Positions 44,165 to 51,694 of a stretch of DNA of 64,000 nt are shown here, in pieces. The notes under the pieces are model-generated. The model saw only the letters and a program-made list of their open reading frames with translations. It was not told where the DNA came from and searched no databases. The stretch lies in the NCBI GenBank assembly GCA_012510495.1, contig JAAZHX010000075.1, positions 1,064 to 65,063 on the forward strand, in the 5' to 3' direction. Positions within the stretch are counted from its first letter, which is position 1, and each line of letters begins with the position of its first letter. A program made the position numbers and the translations under genes. The DNA comes from Smithella sp. Lineage in GTDB: Bacteria > Desulfobacterota > Syntrophia > Syntrophales > Smithellaceae.

Positions 44165-44416
44165 GAAGTGCCTCCTGTTTTAGCGGGGAGAGCCCCATTT
44201 TGTTAACGGTGCACAGGTGGATCGGTGAAGCTAATATTTTTATGTCATAGACATTCTACTGCACACTGAAAACGAAAGTTTACAATTAAAATCCATTTTA
44301 TCAACTTCGTACGTGCCCCCCTTACTAAAAATGAAAGGGCATGTCAAATTTATTTTGCAATCTTTTTCAATGAGGTATAGGAAGCGGCAAACGAAAAAGA
44401 TGAGGATACGCCGTTG

Positions 44417-46464: not shown

Positions 46465-47421
46465 ATGAAAGCGATTGGCGCGGGGAATAAAGACCTGGAA
46501 AATCCGGCCTTGCCGGCCGCCGCGATCAAGGAAGAAGCCCGCAGGCTCGGATTTGACAGTTGCGGGATTTCCCGCGCAGAAGCGCTCCCGGAAGACGCGG
46601 CGCGCCTGCAGAAGTGGCTGGATCACGGGTATCACGCCTCGATGGCTTACATGGAAAGAAATACCCGGAAGCGGGTTGACCCGACCCGGCTTTTCGAAGG
46701 CGCCCGGTCGGTCATTTCCGTCCTTTTGAATTACTATCCGCCCGGGACGCAAGCCGATCCCGAAGCGCCTGTTCTGGCAAAGTATGCTTACGGAAAAGAC
46801 TATCACGTCGTTGTCAGGGAAAAACTAAACCGCCTTTTGAGGAGCATCACATCAGGCATCGCGCCGGTTCGCGGCCGGGTGTTTGTGGATACGGCGCCGC
46901 TGCTTGAAAAGGCATGGGCCGCCCGCGCGGGGCTGGGCTGGATCGGCAAAAACACCTGCCTGATTTCACCGGAGAGAGGCTCCTTTTGTTTCATTGGGAC
47001 GATTCTGGTCGATATCCCCCTGCAATGCGACAGCCCCGTTGACGATCTATGCGGCGATTGCACGCTCTGCATCGACGCCTGCCCTGCGAAGGCGCTTGTC
47101 GCCCCGCGAACACTGGATGCCGGCCGCTGCATTTCCTATTGGACAGTCGAAAACAAGACGGCCGTCGGAGAGGCGTTCGGAGATCGGCTGGCCAATCGCG
47201 TGTTCGGCTGTGATATCTGCCAGGATGTCTGCCCCTGGAACCGCCGCGCCGTTCCGCACTGTGAAAAAGACTTCGACGCCCCGGCCGGATTGCTGAAAAT
47301 GACCCGCGAGGACTGGTTCAACCTCAACGAAGAACAATACTGGAGGCTGTTTCAACATTCCGCCGTGAAAAGAATTGGATTTGAAGGGCTGAAAAGAAAC
47401 CTCGATCGCATCGCGGAGTAA
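46465..47421 (+). CDS. queG: Epoxyqueuosine reductase
   Basis: YAYGKDYH, VDTAPLLEK, GWIGKN, CGDCTLCIDACP, FGCDICQDVCPWN. Confidence 0.96.
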   Translation: MKAIGAGNKDLENPALPAAAIKEEARRLGFDSCGISRAEALPEDAARLQKWLDHGYHASMAYMERNTRKRVDPTRLFEGARSVISVLLNYYPPGTQADPEAPVLAKYAYGKDYHVVVREKLNRLLRSITSGIAPVRGRVFVDTAPLLEKAWAARAGLGWIGKNTCLISPERGSFCFIGTILVDIPLQCDSPVDDLCGDCTLCIDACPAKALVAPRTLDAGRCISYWTVENKTAVGEAFGDRLANRVFGCDICQDVCPWNRRAVPHCEKDFDAPAGLLKMTREDWFNLNEEQYWRLFQHSAVKRIGFEGLKRNLDRIAE

Positions 47422-47545
47422 TCAAGACGCGGGAAGGCGACATTCTTAAGTGAAAACGCCGGATGCGAAGTTTCCCAAATTGCGAAAGGCTCTGTGGATA
47501 GAGGGACACTTTTTTTCAGCCATACCTGCCGAATTCCCAATATGA

Positions 47546-47593
47546 TTGACAAAACCATATCGATCATGATATCGTAGCACAAAACAGATCGAT
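47546..47593 (+). promoter_or_regulatory. vapBC promoter with inverted operator
   Basis: TTGACA at 47546; ATCGATC (47559) and GATCGAT (47587) inverted pair. Confidence 0.6.
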
Positions 47594-47605
47594 GGAGGTA
47601 TTGGA

Positions 47606-47812
47606 ATGCAATCAGTAACCGTATCACCAAAATATCAAATCGTTATACCCAAAACCGTCAGGGAGTCTTTGCAGCTTTATCCAGGCCAAAAAATGCAGAT
47701 TGTTGAATATGCCGGTCATATTGAACTGATACCGGAACGCGATATCAAGGAACTGCGTGGATTTCTCAAGGGTATCAATACTGAATTCAAACGAGAGGAA
47801 GACAGAGTATGA
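47606..47812 (+). CDS. vapB: AbrB/MazE-type antitoxin
   Basis: VSPKYQIVIPK.VRE.L...PGQ; overlaps the toxin start. Confidence 0.92.
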   Translation: MQSVTVSPKYQIVIPKTVRESLQLYPGQKMQIVEYAGHIELIPERDIKELRGFLKGINTEFKREEDRV

Positions 47813-48183
47813 ACATTGTAGATTCGTCCGGCTGGCTTGCATATTTTGCCGACGAGCCAAATGCCAAGTATTTTTTGCCGCCACTCAGTGATTCAGATTT
47901 ACTTGTTGTCCCATCGGTCACTATTTACGAAGTCTTTAAAGTCATCCTGAGGGAATCCAGTGACAATGAAGCATTACAGGCGGTTGTTGCCATGCAAAGA
48001 GGAAAGGTTGTGGACCTGAGCGCGCCATTGGCAATCGCAGCTTCAAGGCTGAGCCTGGAGCATCAACTTCCCATGGCAGACAGTATCATTCTTGCCACAG
48101 CACAAGAATTCAAAGCCGTTATATGGACGCAAAATTCAGACTTTAAAAACATAAGCAAGGTGAAGTATTTTCCTAAAAAATAA
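47809..48183 (+). CDS. vapC: PIN-domain toxin
   Basis: NIVDSSGWLAY, YEV, LPMADSIILATA. Confidence 0.94.
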   Translation: MNIVDSSGWLAYFADEPNAKYFLPPLSDSDLLVVPSVTIYEVFKVILRESSDNEALQAVVAMQRGKVVDLSAPLAIAASRLSLEHQLPMADSIILATAQEFKAVIWTQNSDFKNISKVKYFPKK

Positions 48184-48184
48184 A

Positions 48185-48220
48185 GCCCAACAGATCAATA
48201 CAGTCGATCGCTTCGCTCCG
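48185..48220 (+). other. Left half of an integron attC-like site
   Basis: RYYYAAC core GCCCAAC right after the vapC stop, then CAATACAGTCGATCGCTTCGCTCCG; right arm replaced by AT-rich DNA. Confidence 0.6.
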
Positions 48221-48350
48221 TTTCAGATTTTCCTCCGGTTTCGGGAGATTTTTCTTTTTTTAAAATGATGAATAAAAAAATCATTGCAACTAAGAGAATA
48301 CCCATTATAACAAAAACACTTATTTGGGCCTTTTTATTTGAAAAAATCAC
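48195..48350 (-). pseudogene. Truncated archaeal-type class III signal peptide (prepilin-like) protein
   Basis: GTG-start MIFSNKKAQISVFVIMGILLVAMIFLFIILKKEK, then reads through the junction into attC and stops. Confidence 0.7.
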
Positions 48351-48481
48351 TTCCTCTCCTTTAGCAATTTAATTGCCTCTTCAATAACGTGAGATTTATT
48401 TCTGTATTTGCCTTTTTTTAAGAACTCTTCAATAATTTTTTCCGTTTCTTTATCAATTGTTGCCGATATTCTTGTCTTCAT
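48347..48481 (-). CDS. 44-aa ribbon-helix-helix DNA-binding protein (archaeal-like), below the ORF-track cutoff
   Basis: MKTRISATIDKETEKIIEEFLKKGKYRNKSHVIEEAIKLLKERK; GAGGTGA SD; GTGA overlap with the next gene. Confidence 0.8.
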   Translation of the reverse strand: MKTRISATIDKETEKIIEEFLKKGKYRNKSHVIEEAIKLLKERK

Positions 48482-48515
48482 CAATTCACCTCTATTTTAA
48501 AGTAACATTAAATAA

Positions 48516-48618
48516 TACTAAATACTACAAAATATTTAAAATAAGATAAAATATACTTAATCTTATTTAATATACTAAATACTACTTAGTAATAAGGGTA
48601 TTTAAAAGTTTTTGTTCG
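48516..48618 (-). promoter_or_regulatory. Archaeal-type BRE/TATA promoter with 13-bp direct repeats
   Basis: Minus strand CGAACAAAAACTTTTAAATAC; second TTTAAATA near 48533-48540; TACTAAATACTAC at 48516 and 48573. Confidence 0.6.
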
Positions 48619-48655
48619 GTATTAAAATTATAAAATTAAGAAAAATACAAAACGT

Positions 48656-49369
48656 TTATCCGTCTTTCCAGTGAAGAATTAGTCCCCTTTTCTTTTGATA
48701 GAGCTCAAGTCTAGCAATGTTTTCATTTTTGTGCGCTTCGTTTATAAAATTTCTAGTGGTAGCAATAGATCCTACAAAATTGTCTCTTGAATAAATTCTT
48801 TTTGTAGGATTAATTCCTTTTTTATATGAGTATATAAATGAATCACCAAATTTAAAATTTTCTATTATTGGTTTTATTTCTTTAATTCTTTCTTTAGCAT
48901 TTTCCTCATTTTCAAGTTCTGTAAATTCTACAAAAAAAAAATAATTAGGGAAATTTGTTTTTCCGGTGTATTCTGCATTCATAAGCCTTTTCCAAGAATG
49001 CTCTTTTTTTAATAAACTTCCATCACTCTTTACGTTATTTAAAAACATAGGGTTTGCTTGCCTTTTAAGTTTCATATAGTGCCTGTCTTCTGGCCAAGTA
49101 AGTCTCATTCCATAGAGCTCTTCTCCTGATAGAAGGAAATCTTCTATTTTTGTAATTGGAATTGGTCCAGAATCGTATTGTTTATGAGAGTTTACATCAA
49201 AATCTTTTGTAACGTTTTCGTGAGCTACACGTACATAACACCCCCCCAAACTTCCAAGTCCAGCAAGGGCTAATCCAGCAATTCCAGCTTTTTTTATAAA
49301 ATCTCTTCTTCCAATACCCTCTGATTTTTCTTCCAAATCATAAACGCTCTTTATTAAATCATTTTTCAT
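48656..49369 (-). CDS. Hypothetical Tat-type lipoprotein-like protein, very AT-rich
   Basis: GRRDFIKKAGIAGLALAGLGSLGGC twin-arginine signal ending in Cys; foreign codon usage. Confidence 0.7.
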   Translation of the reverse strand: MKNDLIKSVYDLEEKSEGIGRRDFIKKAGIAGLALAGLGSLGGCYVRVAHENVTKDFDVNSHKQYDSGPIPITKIEDFLLSGEELYGMRLTWPEDRHYMKLKRQANPMFLNNVKSDGSLLKKEHSWKRLMNAEYTGKTNFPNYFFFVEFTELENEENAKERIKEIKPIIENFKFGDSFIYSYKKGINPTKRIYSRDNFVGSIATTRNFINEAHKNENIARLELYQKKRGLILHWKDG

Positions 49370-49384
49370 GGTTTTTGGGGTTCC

Positions 49385-49610
49385 TTTCTTGAACTTTGCT
49401 CTAATTCTTCTGTTTATATGGAAAGTATGCCAACCGCTCCTGCTGGGTTTGTCAATACCGCTCCTATTGCTGCACCAGTTATTCCGAAGAATGTTTCTCT
49501 AGGCTCGGTAGGAGCGCCTTCAGCAGTATTTTTTTAGAAGTTTCTGAACCCTCTTATTAATCAGTTGAACCGGTTGTTGAAGAAATTGTTGCAATGTAAA
49601 TTGATAAGAA
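49385..49610 (-). pseudogene. Degenerate C-terminus of a DPANN-style secreted/anchored protein
   Basis: S/T/E-rich linker with stops and a frameshift, then PRETFFGITGAAIGAVLTNP and a basic tail RRIRAKFKK. Confidence 0.5.
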
Positions 49611-49704
49611 CCTCTTTTTGCGGTTATGAGCATAGGCGGCGGTGAATTTTTTGTCAAGAAGATTATGGGCATACATATAATGACGATATTTTGCCGAATC
49701 ATGG

Positions 49705-49733
49705 TTGACAGACGAAACGTCTCTTCATATACT
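49705..49733 (+). promoter_or_regulatory. sigma70 promoter of the IMPCH-AICART operon
   Basis: TTGACA-17bp-TATACT. Confidence 0.75.
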
Positions 49734-49780
49734 CGCGCCACAAAACGACAATCCATAATTTGCAACAGGGAGAAAACTTC

Positions 49781-50512
49781 ATGAAAACGAACTTATATGA
49801 CTATCTGGCCGGAAACGAGTATCCGGGCCGCGGCCTGGCCATCGGAAAAACCCCGGACGGCAAAAAATCCATGATCGCTTATTTCATCATGGGCCGGAGC
49901 ACAAACAGCCGCAACCGCGTGTTTGATCCCATTGAGGGCGGCATCCGCACGAAGGCGGCCGATCCTTCCAGGATGACGGACCCGCATCTGATCATTTACA
50001 ATCCCGTTCTGACGCTGGACGGCACGACAATTGTGACGAACGGCGACCAGACCAACACCATCTATGACTTTCTGATCGCCGACCGCCATCCCGGCTATAA
50101 TTTTGAAGCCGCGCTCGCGACCCGCACGTTTGAAGACGACAAGCCCAACTGGACGCCCCGCATTTCCGGCGTATTGAATATGCGCCAGGGCGGCTATAAG
50201 CTCAGCATTTTAAAGAGCGATGACGGCAATGAGGAGAGCGTCGAGCGATTTACGTTCAGTTATCCGGAACCCCTGGCGGGTTCGGGGCGCTTCATCAGCA
50301 CCTACAAATGTAACGGCAATCCGATACCCAGTTTCGAAGGCGAGCCGCTGCGCGTGGTCCTCGACGAGGAAGATCCCAACGAATATGCGGGCAAACTCTG
50401 GGAATCCTTGAACGAAGACAACAAGGTGAGCCTGTTTGTCCGCGCCATCGATCTTTCGAACGGTTCCTATGAAGACGTCATCATGAACAAATATCAGGCC
50501 GTGGAGGGATAA
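49781..50512 (+). CDS. IMP cyclohydrolase-like protein (PurO-related Ntn fold)
   Basis: YPGRG, YFIMGRSTNSRNR, LIIYNP, TNGDQT, TPRISG. Confidence 0.88.
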   Translation: MKTNLYDYLAGNEYPGRGLAIGKTPDGKKSMIAYFIMGRSTNSRNRVFDPIEGGIRTKAADPSRMTDPHLIIYNPVLTLDGTTIVTNGDQTNTIYDFLIADRHPGYNFEAALATRTFEDDKPNWTPRISGVLNMRQGGYKLSILKSDDGNEESVERFTFSYPEPLAGSGRFISTYKCNGNPIPSFEGEPLRVVLDEEDPNEYAGKLWESLNEDNKVSLFVRAIDLSNGSYEDVIMNKYQAVEG

Positions 50513-50515
50513 GCC

Positions 50516-51694
50516 ATGAATGAAATACAATTGAAATACGGATGCAACCCCAACCAGAAACCCGCCCGGATTTTTCTGGCGGCGGGCGGAAGCCTGCCGG
50601 TGACGGTGCTCAACGGCAAGCCGGGCTATATCAACTTTCTCGACGCGCTCAACAGCTGGCAGTTGGTTAAAGAGCTCAAGGAGAATACCGGCAAGGTGGC
50701 CGCTGCTTCCTTCAAGCATGTGTCGCCCGCCGGCGCCGCTTTGGGCTTTCCCCTGGATGACGTGCTGCGCCGGATGTATCACATCGCGCCGGACATGGAG
50801 CTTTCACCGCTTGCCTGCGCTTACGCAAGAGCGCGGGGCGCCGACCGCATGAGCAGCTTCGGCGACTGGATCGCGCTGTCCGACCCGTGCGATGTTCCCA
50901 CGGCAAAGATCATCAAAAATGAAGTCACCGACGGCATCATCGCTCCGGGCTACGAGCCCGAAGCGCTGGCAATCCTGAAATCCAAGAAGGGCGGCAACTA
51001 CAATGTCGTGTCCATCGACCCGCGCTACGTTCCCGCCGCGATCGAGCACAAGCAGGTTTACGGCATTACGTTTGAGCAGGGCCGTAACGAGCTGAAGATC
51101 GACGCGGGCATGCTGGAAAACATCGTGACCGAAAACAAGACGCTTTCCGACGCGCAGAAGCGCGACCTCGTGCTGGCGCTCATCACGCTCAAATACACGC
51201 AGTCCAACAGCGTCTGCTTCGTGCAGGACGGCCAGGTGATCGGTGTGGGCGCGGGCCAGCAGAGCCGCATCCACTGCACGCGGCTGGCCGGACAAAAGGC
51301 CGACCTCTGGCAGCTTCGCCACATGACCAAGGTGCTGGATCTGCCCTTCCGCGACGACGTCGCCAAGCCCAACCGCGACAACGCCATCGATGTTTATCTG
51401 GGGGACACCCCCGAAGACGTGATCGGCGAGGGCATGTGGGCCGAAACCTTCACGCGCCGCCCCGAACCGCTTTCAACACAAGAGCGGAAGGCCTGGCTTG
51501 GCAAGGTTACCGGCGTCTGTCTGGGGAGCGATGCGTTCTTCCCCTTCGGCGACAATATCGAGCGCGCGCGCCGCAGCGGCGTCGCCGCCATTGTCGAGCC
51601 GGGCGGCTCCATCCGCGACCGGCAGGTGATCGACACCTGCAACAAGTATGGCATCGTCATGGCGTTTTGCGGGCTCAGGCTGTTCCATCACTGA
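50516..51694 (+). CDS. purH: Stand-alone AICAR transformylase (PurH C-terminal domain)
   Basis: LKYGCNPNQ, GYINFLDA, SFKHVSPAG, KYTQSNSV, GQQSRIHC, SDAFFPF, PGGS; no IMPCH domain. Confidence 0.93.
   Translation: MNEIQLKYGCNPNQKPARIFLAAGGSLPVTVLNGKPGYINFLDALNSWQLVKELKENTGKVAAASFKHVSPAGAALGFPLDDVLRRMYHIAPDMELSPLACAYARARGADRMSSFGDWIALSDPCDVPTAKIIKNEVTDGIIAPGYEPEALAILKSKKGGNYNVVSIDPRYVPAAIEHKQVYGITFEQGRNELKIDAGMLENIVTENKTLSDAQKRDLVLALITLKYTQSNSVCFVQDGQVIGVGAGQQSRIHCTRLAGQKADLWQLRHMTKVLDLPFRDDVAKPNRDNAIDVYLGDTPEDVIGEGMWAETFTRRPEPLSTQERKAWLGKVTGVCLGSDAFFPFGDNIERARRSGVAAIVEPGGSIRDRQVIDTCNKYGIVMAFCGLRLFHH

Follow-up and report, generated by a model that had tools for sequence, protein, structure and literature searches.

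The subject of this analysis is a short AT-rich island in the chromosome of a Smithella sp. (Desulfobacterota), found in a window of 64,000 nt (the whole stretch of DNA analysed) that forms part of contig JAAZHX010000075.1 (C206) of a metagenome-assembled genome (MAG) of 2.8 Mb in 332 contigs, with a contamination of 6.56%. The island occupies 1378 nt (window 48221-49598) and departs abruptly from its surroundings in composition, as the original prediction had claimed: its guanine-cytosine content (GC) is 0.307 against 0.57 and 0.568 in the flanks, and in 300-nt windows the GC is 0.23-0.26 at 48250-48999 and 0.53-0.65 in the flanks. Its coding capacity lies on the minus strand throughout and comprises a gene for a lipoprotein with a twin-arginine translocation (Tat) signal, a gene for a small ribbon-helix-helix (RHH) protein of CopG type, and a pilin-like gene that breaks off after 44 codons, inside the attC site of a vapBC gene cassette (Table 1). 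The island is foreign DNA, and most of it is colinear with a contig of an archaeal MAG. It is most likely a fragment of a Woesearchaeota-type DPANN chromosome that was captured into the bacterial chromosome by illegitimate joining.

Table 1. Features of the island and its flanks (window coordinates)
Feature	Position	Strand	Basis or remark
Remnant of the 3' end of gene 'Y', 54 nt	47453-47506	+	85% identical to own C291:47419-47472; ...AAATTCCCCAAATTGCAGAAAGCTTGA of G091 aligns
8-bp direct repeat TGCCGAAT	47527-47534 and 49692-49699	+	near both ends of the composite insert; right copy native
vapBC integron-type gene cassette, 683 nt	47538-48220	+	discrete recurrent unit
vapBC cassette promoter	47546-47575	+	promoter scan
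MazE/AbrB-type antitoxin	47606-47812	+	Pfam MazE_antitoxin 4.2e-8
PIN toxin (vapC)	47809-48183	+	Pfam PIN 1.2e-17
Half attC	48185-48220	+	R'' core GCCCAAC (48185-48191), L'' arm and loop (…CAATACAGTCGATCGCTTCGCTCCG); L' arm and R' core (GTTRRRY) absent
Archaeal-homologous part of the island, 1157 nt	48221-49377		unbroken alignment to L003
Pilin-type gene, 5' part, first 44 codons	48221-48350	-	class III-like signal; 71% identical over residues 1-45 to the 261-aa protein of L003
RHH (CopG-type) gene, 44 aa, intact	48347-48481	-	Pfam RHH_1; stop overlaps start of pilin-like gene
AT-rich spacer with repeats	48485-48655	-	inside the continuous alignment with L003
Tat-signal lipoprotein gene, 237 aa, intact	48656-49369	-	RRDFIKK, LGGC
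Orphan segment, 221 nt, GC 0.416	49378-49598	-	between archaeal-homologous part and promoter fragment; holds the 'GITGAAIG' stretch
Bacterial sigma-70 promoter fragment, 73 nt	49599-49671	-	TTGACA 49657-49652, 17-nt spacer, TATGCT 49634-49629; points into the island
Native promoter	49705-49733	+	promoter scan, 11/12
IMP cyclohydrolase-like gene, bacterial right flank	49781-50512	+	Pfam IMP_cyclohyd 3.5e-60

Colinearity with archaeal genomes

A scan of species genomes (one genome per species) returns two relatives of the island among 100 candidate stretches, both titled Candidatus Woesearchaeota MAGs. One of them, L003, is a contig of 8.7 kb with a GC of 0.307 throughout, in which the order of the genes is identical: a 242-aa Tat lipoprotein (58% identity), a 44-aa RHH protein (40 of 44 residues) and a 261-aa protein that starts MIFSNKKAQ. 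At the level of DNA, blastn yields a single alignment between the window and L003, 1186 columns long and 73.9% identical, which spans 48220-49377 and ends at the left junction; at the opposite end the similarity to the archaeal contig gives out 8 nt ahead of the lipoprotein start codon. The GC of the archaeal-homologous part is 0.286, and that of donor-type contigs 0.287-0.307.

None of the 46 other genomes of the genus has the island, in searches by protein or by DNA, and a profile of the lipoprotein finds just two carriers among 339 genomes of the order (G000 and G007). The TATA-binding protein (TBP) is encoded in both Woesearchaeota MAGs, G116 and G117, which come from separate projects, and is absent from G000 and G007; as a control, TBP is positive in just the four archaea of 14 named genomes. 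Donor-like GC, absence in close relatives and the gene order of the donor group, which mark an island of archaeal origin, thus coincide. Together with the archaeal clusters of the pilin-like family described below, these results bear out the central claim made from the sequence beforehand, that DPANN- or Woesearchaeota-like DNA has been captured in a bacterial chromosome. The direction was probably from archaeon to bacterium, to judge from composition: the donor genome has a GC of 0.29-0.31 throughout. The transfer is apparently recent, since no amelioration is seen.

The genes and their relatives

The minus-strand signals from which the original prediction argued are in place: the motif AAAAACTTTTAAATA at 48599-48613, a putative BRE-TATA promoter within the spacer upstream of the RHH gene; GAGGTGA at 48486-48492, 4 nt ahead of the ATG of the 44-aa open reading frame (ORF); the RHH gene itself; the coupled NKKAQ gene, cut at the junction; and, among them, the Tat-signal ORF. 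The RHH protein matches Pfam RHH_1 (PF01402) with 23.0 bits against a gathering score of 20.5 (E 7.6e-5), with residues 5-44 on profile positions 1-39, and it shares 39 of 44 residues with its counterpart in G007. The spacer upstream of the gene contains an exact 14-nt direct repeat, ATACTAAATACTAC, at 48515 and 48572, and a 41-nt inverted repeat (48513-48594, 73% complementary, no spacer). The motifs AGTATATTTTAT and TATTTAGTA in the island of G007 resemble these repeats, and similar motifs also follow the lipoprotein gene of a metagenome contig, L042. Judged from the sequence, the spacer is a candidate RHH operator and native promoter, in which the repeats at 48513-48594 are likely operator sites and the RHH protein would bind the copies of ATACTAAATACTAC. 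An Rfam scan of 47300-50000 (E up to 1) gives no significant match, its lone hit to speFL being below threshold (17.6 vs 37 bits).

The pilin-like gene is called as a GTG ORF of 51 codons (48195-48350), which overlaps the RHH stop, starts (V)IFSNKKAQ and continues in a hydrophobic run; the stub sequence reads NKKAQ followed by ISVFVIMGILLVAMIFLFIIL. Archaeal class III signal peptides combine a short basic N-terminus, a motif of K-[GA]-Q type and a hydrophobic helix, and an archaeal prepilin peptidase processes them. The stub shares the short basic N-terminus NKKAQ and a hydrophobic helix of ∼21 residues with archaeal type IV pilin-like proteins, and its family is archaeal in the protein-language-model Atlas: the 261-aa protein of L003 scores 0.97 to three clusters of 52-101 members each, whose recorded taxa, known for 4-11 members each, are 90-100% Archaea and mostly Nanobdellota. 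It differs from such proteins in having no match to Class_IIIsignal, the Pfam family of archaeal class III signal peptides, and in the 44 codons that are left of it. The window ORF departs from its full-length homologue after codon 44, and its last seven codons (ERSDRLY) are read from the sequence of the attC loop. Since only 44 codons survive, the stub cannot function as a pilin in the bacterium; it would be a remnant. In G116 the 261-aa gene has a second, paralogous copy (63%) in another operon and a relative of 657 aa, and G117 has a different 657-aa relative.

The 237-aa protein contains GRRDFIKKAGIAGLALAGLGSLGGC, with a twin-arginine motif and a lipobox-like LGGC, and R21, R22 and C44 are invariant across 13 aligned lipoprotein sequences. 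The relatives carry the source name 'twin-arginine translocation signal domain-containing protein'. The protein would be exported by the Tat route and lipid-anchored at the bacterial envelope. Its 12 relatives include a protein labelled Smithellaceae (70% identity; MDD3248762.1/P0002, from a 60-kb contig) and proteins of Woesearchaeota MAGs (58% and 40%). The conservation of the family is uneven along its length: across the 13 aligned sequences the signal part is 89-98% identical in the main group and the mature part 20-63%. The same contrast is seen between the two archaeal MAGs (L003, G116:C20 5986-6714; G117:C9 27331-28146), which are 99% identical upstream through the signal peptide and 94% at the 3' end, with centres that cannot be aligned. 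Because the unalignable centres lie between such closely similar ends, the mature domain appears to have been swapped in the manner of a cassette within the archaeal population.

Variation of the same kind may occur behind the bacterial junction. A 51-aa ORF with the junction tail of the window (two residues differ) occurs on two Logan contigs, the longest of 8201 nt, and the protein P0008 agrees with it in the number of Logan contigs and in the length of the longest. The signal of P0008 is 98% identical to that of the window, and its mature part 23% identical to that of the window and 64% to that of G007. If P0008 and the 51-aa ORF share one contig, the variable domain would have been swapped in the bacterium while the junction stayed as it was. 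In two metagenome runs (X2 and X14, described below) there are loose ends at 48841 and 49282, from which other contigs share the island rightwards and then diverge, one of them within the signal peptide region; the samples thus also contain other alleles, or paralogues that share this leader.

The AF2 model of the lipoprotein has a pLDDT of 64.5. In the VIA fold comparison its predicted mature domain (residues ∼60-237) aligns with a group of PknH-ectodomain, TiME, LpqN and PsbP/Mog1-type domains at Z 8.0 (PknH ectodomain; root-mean-square deviation 3.8, 129 residues aligned), 7.3 (TiME), 6.1 and 4.8, and several members of this group are lipoproteins or secreted sensor domains. In contrast with these likenesses, sequence identity to the lipoprotein is 5-9%, the model is of middling confidence, and a Z of ∼8 is common without true kinship. 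The best E value from Foldseek with the same model is 0.019, and the best Atlas score of 0.79 is uninformative. An extracytoplasmic binding fold may be suggested for the mature domain, as a lead on its fold and not on its function.

Several observations weigh against the reading as a captured fragment of a Woesearchaeota-type chromosome. Among the Pfam and NCBIfam matches on the 8.7-kb and 28-kb archaeal MAG contigs (glycosyltransferases, a radical SAM protein, a flippase-like protein and an NYN domain) there is no domain-specific archaeal marker, so that the archaeal assignment rests on binning. The lipoprotein family is rare in the archaea sampled, with one strong match in 401 genomes of the phylum of G116 and one in 251 of its order, each being G116 itself; in these samples of genomes there are also three weak hits, to the signal part only. 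The nearest archaeal DNA is only 74% identical, and the true donor is therefore unsampled. Gracilibacteria are low-GC bacteria, and two distant relatives of the lipoprotein (30-35% identity) bear that label. Pfam finds no Class_IIIsignal in the 51-aa ORF (E up to 0.1) or in its 261-aa homologue (E up to 0.05), and NCBIfam gives no class III signal match either. Finally, the junctions were examined on assembled contigs, not on raw or long reads.

The rarity among sampled archaea also fits a donor of another kind: a small AT-rich mobile element (plasmid, virus or integrative element) or a Candidate Phyla Radiation bacterium, which would visit both DPANN archaea and bacteria, and which the archaeal contigs either carry or were binned with. 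Such a donor would account for the patchy spread in archaea and in the order of the bacterium alike, for the Gracilibacteria-labelled relatives, for the lack of archaeal markers on both contigs and for the central domain swapped between near-identical flanks in G116 and G117, and in G007 the recO 3' end is duplicated around the insert, a trace of the sort expected from integrative elements. Against it, a viral collection holds no relative among 160 candidate stretches, and none of the islands contains an integrase, Rep or relaxase gene. The 28-kb contig has housekeeping-like glycosyltransferase and methyltransferase genes of equal GC, the pilin-like gene has its chromosomal paralogue in another operon of G116, and the pilin-like family is archaeal in its three Atlas clusters. 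A mobile-element or bacterial donor is decidedly unlikely in view of these points. The question raised beforehand, whether the best hits would fall in low-GC bacteria or phages, is answered in the same direction: the best named hits are neither, the two Gracilibacteria-labelled proteins being the exceptions.

Junctions and chromosomal setting

The vapBC unit to the left of the island is an integron gene cassette. It is bounded by attC, with boundaries at 47538 and 48220, and of the 46 congeneric genomes 15 carry it, at 16 places in all, with 76-87% identity and each time in a different context. The host bacterium has one or more chromosomal integrons outside the window: TIGR02249 finds the integron integrase in its own genome (365 and 290 bits against a cut-off of 265). 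The integrase genes lie at C35:1353-2294 and C242:232-1077, and three more attC sites of this type at C132:43213, C132:44178 and C139:4189.

The anatomy of the site after vapC can be read from an alignment of eight other copies of the cassette and two attC sites of the genome's own contig C132. The vapBC unit has attC-type sites on both sides, which consist of an RYYYAAC core right after the stop codon, the arm CAATNCAGCCGATCGC, a loop, the return arm GGCTGAT and a GTTRRRY core (GTTAGGC, GTTCGGC). All eight other copies share ...GATCGCTNCGCTCCG, after which six of them have an arm of GCTGAT type and then a core that includes GTT. The window preserves the site through ...GATCGCTTCGCTCCG (48220), and from 48221 island DNA takes the place of L' and R'. 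A complete attC, with its R'' and R' cores around L'' and L', is thus not present, and because the return arm and the R' core are gone, the site is a half attC. The breakpoint that the original prediction had placed inside an attC-like site is therefore real and exact to the base. The half site has a 25-nt match to C132. The complete sites of that contig fold with a CAGCCG/CGGCTG stem, with z of -0.66 and -0.30, no better than shuffles, and the half site is without such a stem.

In the codon alignment the window keeps to the archaeal gene as far as GAA AC of codon 44 and then continues with the complement of the attC loop, with one C shared at the joint. The joint falls after ...GCTCCG, on the border of loop and L', and not at G|TT of the R' core. 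This position bears on whether the integron itself took up the archaeal DNA, as a cassette recombined by IntI between attC and attC or attC and attI, a route for which there is experimental precedent with archaeal cassettes. The genome has the integrases and the attC sites, the island touches an attC, and a source discussed at the end of this text (PMC9668308) reports that a bacterial integron can recruit archaeal cassettes. Canonical capture is nevertheless very improbable: the joint is off the crossover point, the foreign DNA is cut in mid-gene, the fragment consists of three genes and a spacer instead of a single cassette, and no attC of this type is found at the other end of the island or elsewhere in the window (0 matches with up to three mismatches). 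The preferred reading is fixation by illegitimate, end-joining-like recombination: a digester bacterium would have taken up the fragment, one end of which was then joined to the attC hairpin within its single-stranded loop. The role of the attC seems to have been that of a fragile or single-stranded spot rather than of a substrate for recombination.

At the right end, the orphan segment (49378-49598) lies outside the alignment with L003. Its 'GITGAAIG' stretch, taken beforehand for a decayed ORF, is 39 codons open between stops. Read through its TAA as X (48 residues), it has 127 word-sharing candidates, none at E 10 or better, and the DNA of the segment gives only marginal matches of 17-31 nt against 116 genomes of the family, G116, G117 and G007; the claim of a decayed gene thus finds no relatives in protein or DNA. 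The wider claim of residence and decay is doubtful, because the GC is still at donor level and two of the three genes are intact. The adjoining promoter fragment shares 84% identity with the sequence that immediately precedes a Tat-signal flavoprotein gene in the same genome (C42:21425-21499), with matches in six relatives, and its TTGACA-17-TATGCT is the top minus-strand promoter match of the region (10/12). GTTATGA at 49623, once proposed as the displaced right arm of the attC, lies beside the -10 box of this fragment and does not bear that reading. The second end of the archaeal fragment would have joined this copy of a bacterial promoter by way of the 221 nt of unplaced origin, and the promoter may transcribe the lipoprotein and RHH genes.

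Physical continuity with the host DNA was assessed on public sequencing runs. Of the 24 runs listed, 20 contain 68-100% of the words sampled from 47500-50200; these 20 come from eight studies, on digesters, bioreactors and wastewater. The junctions were followed on the per-run contigs of four runs from four studies (2017-2025): a contig of X2 covers 47297-51150 with 0 differences, one of X14 covers 47212-50435 with 38 differences, one of X5 covers 47311-49722 with one difference and one gap, and two overlapping contigs of X3 cover 47216-48612 and 48583-49733 with 0 differences. The source sample may be part of X2 and X3; X14 and X5 bear no such mark. In each of the four runs the depth over the island equals that over the flanks, so the check on spanning and coverage called for in the original prediction comes out in favour of a real insertion. 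A chimeric assembly or mis-binning, by which reads of a co-occurring archaeon were joined into a bacterial contig, might be suspected in a fragmented and partly contaminated MAG, the more so as queG and the IMP-cyclohydrolase gene, on either side of the insert, are neighbours in no relative examined. It would require two false joins, independently repeated, and comparable islands are embedded in contigs of 85 kb (G007) and 42 kb (the metagenome contig L042). With both junctions bridged by single per-run contigs in several studies, a chimera is very unlikely indeed, to the point of being hardly credible. As proof of continuity the contigs are strong but not final.

Run X3 also contains a minor contig that joins 47516 to 49698 (depth 10 vs 125, side of 36 letters), a hint of a site without vapBC, island and promoter fragment. 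A second minor joint in X3, from 48612 to 49238 (side of 27 letters), hints at another allele.

The island is part of a composite insert of 2.18 kb (47517-49697), made up of the vapBC cassette, the half attC, the island and the promoter fragment, in the spacer upstream of the IMP-cyclohydrolase promoter. The left flank is conserved at 80-93% in relatives up to 47437, and the right flank at 77-93% from ∼49690 on. G091 has a single TTTGCCGAATCC ahead of the same cyclohydrolase promoter. The repeat TGCCGAAT near the ends of the composite may mark the crossover of a circular intermediate, a weak indication because 8-mers often recur by chance. An exact 12-nt direct repeat, ATATTTTGCCGA, at 47841-47852 (inside vapC) and 49686-49697 (the right edge of the insert) is possibly meaningless, with ∼0.2 expected by chance in 2.6 kb. 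A transposon or miniature inverted-repeat transposable element (MITE) was considered and dropped, because neither inspection by eye nor a repeat search gave convincing terminal inverted repeats at the ends of the insert.

The site itself is a rearrangement point, as judged from the gene orders around it. The gene directly upstream of the IMP cyclohydrolase is 'Y' in G091, a CoA-ligase-like gene in G080 (read from sequence) and another gene in G114. The adjacency of queG (46465-47421) and the PurO-like IMP cyclohydrolase/AICARFT pair (49781-51694) is found in this genome only. The DNA after queG in G080, G086, G087 and G091 matches the own contig C42 (∼60-68 kb), and the DNA before the cyclohydrolase gene in G091, G079 and G071 matches the own contig C291. 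On C291 there is also an element of ∼100 nt (44166-44267; L030 6167-6268) with dozens of repeats in G080 and G087 at 80-94% identity, similar to MITE or repetitive extragenic palindromic (REP) elements; it may explain the breakage of these MAGs into many contigs.

Recurrence in bacteria and known systems

The same trio of genes is met in two further bacterial contexts, in whole or in part. G007 belongs to another genus, and its lipoprotein is identical letter for letter to P0009, source-labelled deltaproteobacterium. Its island is 1.5 kb long, with a GC of 0.30, and carries the trio with a lipoprotein 38-42% identical. The cut in its pilin-like gene follows the codon that corresponds to K41 of the gene in the window, ∼8 nt from the cut there; the partner at the joint is a partial second copy of the recO 3' end, and the island has a BrnT/BrnA pair and a TTGACA-17-TATACT promoter next to it. 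On this contig (L006, G007:C22, 633-900 and 3110-3673) the insert of BrnT/BrnA, promoter and island lies between an intact recO and a partial recO 3' copy with an internal deletion. The recO duplication is the footprint expected of a Campbell-type integration of a circle carrying a recO fragment. The third context is L042, a bacterial-type metagenome contig with flanks of GC 0.538, where the lipoprotein gene lies alone in a 0.9-kb patch of GC 0.348 behind a TTGACA -35 box. It comes from a metagenome scan in which at least one locus was confirmed among 599 stretches, which is not a census.

The three copies might all go back to one old event, in which a mobile unit of bacteria, possibly a cassette array, captured the DNA and then spread among Smithellaceae-type bacteria. 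The near-coincident cuts in the pilin-like genes of the window and G007 suit such descent, as do the toxin-antitoxin module and consensus -35 promoter that both islands adjoin and the 51-aa ORF with the same junction tail beside an apparent G007-type mature domain. The identities of the signal-region DNA point the other way: the window is nearer to the archaeal G117 (90%) than to G007 (81.6%), and G007 is equally far from the window and the archaea (80.9% to G117). They favour separate captures over a single bacterial ancestor. All three islands, moreover, are still donor-like in composition (GC 0.30-0.35), which long residence should erode, and their junction partners differ (attC loop, recO copy, other). 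A single old capture is thus unlikely. Separate captures with cuts 8 nt apart would need a hot spot.

A broader reading of the recurrence would be that a module of hypervariable Tat lipoprotein and RHH regulator has been moving, recently and more than once, from DPANN archaea of Woesearchaeota type to syntrophic deltaproteobacteria of anaerobic digesters, with its downstream end at a preferred break point (the two joints 8 nt apart) and with the variable domain exchanged in the bacterium while the junction is kept. As a whole this is a doubtful proposal, and we put it forward as speculation. If true, it would imply a specific route, either direct cell contact, with the DPANN archaeon on or beside its bacterial partner, or a dedicated vector, together with selection, on the bacterial side, for a surface protein of archaeal origin.

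Most of the evidence for gene transfer from archaea to bacteria comes from phylogenies of old genes that have since ameliorated; in the present case both the donor arrangement and the joints are legible at single-base resolution. On the preferred reading, a captured piece of Woesearchaeota-type chromosome, DPANN DNA can become established unaltered in the chromosome of a bacterium, the hairpin of an attC can be a landing point without integrase chemistry, and a bacterial promoter is positioned to drive the foreign genes. Three bacterial contexts and near-coincident breaks make two questions testable: which cells DPANN archaea touch in digesters, and why the surface lipoprotein is kept.

The closest known system is the recruitment of cassettes by integrons across domains. 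Passages of Ghaly et al. (2022, Sci Adv, PMC9668308) report that archaea possess integrons, that a bacterial class 1 integron is able to recruit archaeal cassettes, and that attCs of Nanoarchaeota are 95-100% identical to those of Desulfobacterota and other phyla. As far as these passages go, the present case agrees with that system in having archaeal DNA beside an attC in an integrase-bearing bacterium, with a donor (Nanoarchaeota) and a recipient (Desulfobacterota) of the groups named there. It differs in the joint, which does not fall on the integrase crossover, and in the piece itself, which is no cassette but consists of three genes, one of them cut, with no attC of its own. With ordinary genomic islands the locus shares the GC break, the absence in all 46 congeners, the toxin-antitoxin module and a site of variable synteny. 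Unlike these, it has a cross-domain donor, a length of only 1.4 kb and base-exact colinearity with donor-type DNA, it lacks mobility genes, an integrase and a tRNA target, and related pieces occur in other bacteria. In kind it is a horizontally acquired island of the sort already known; as an instance it is unusually clean.

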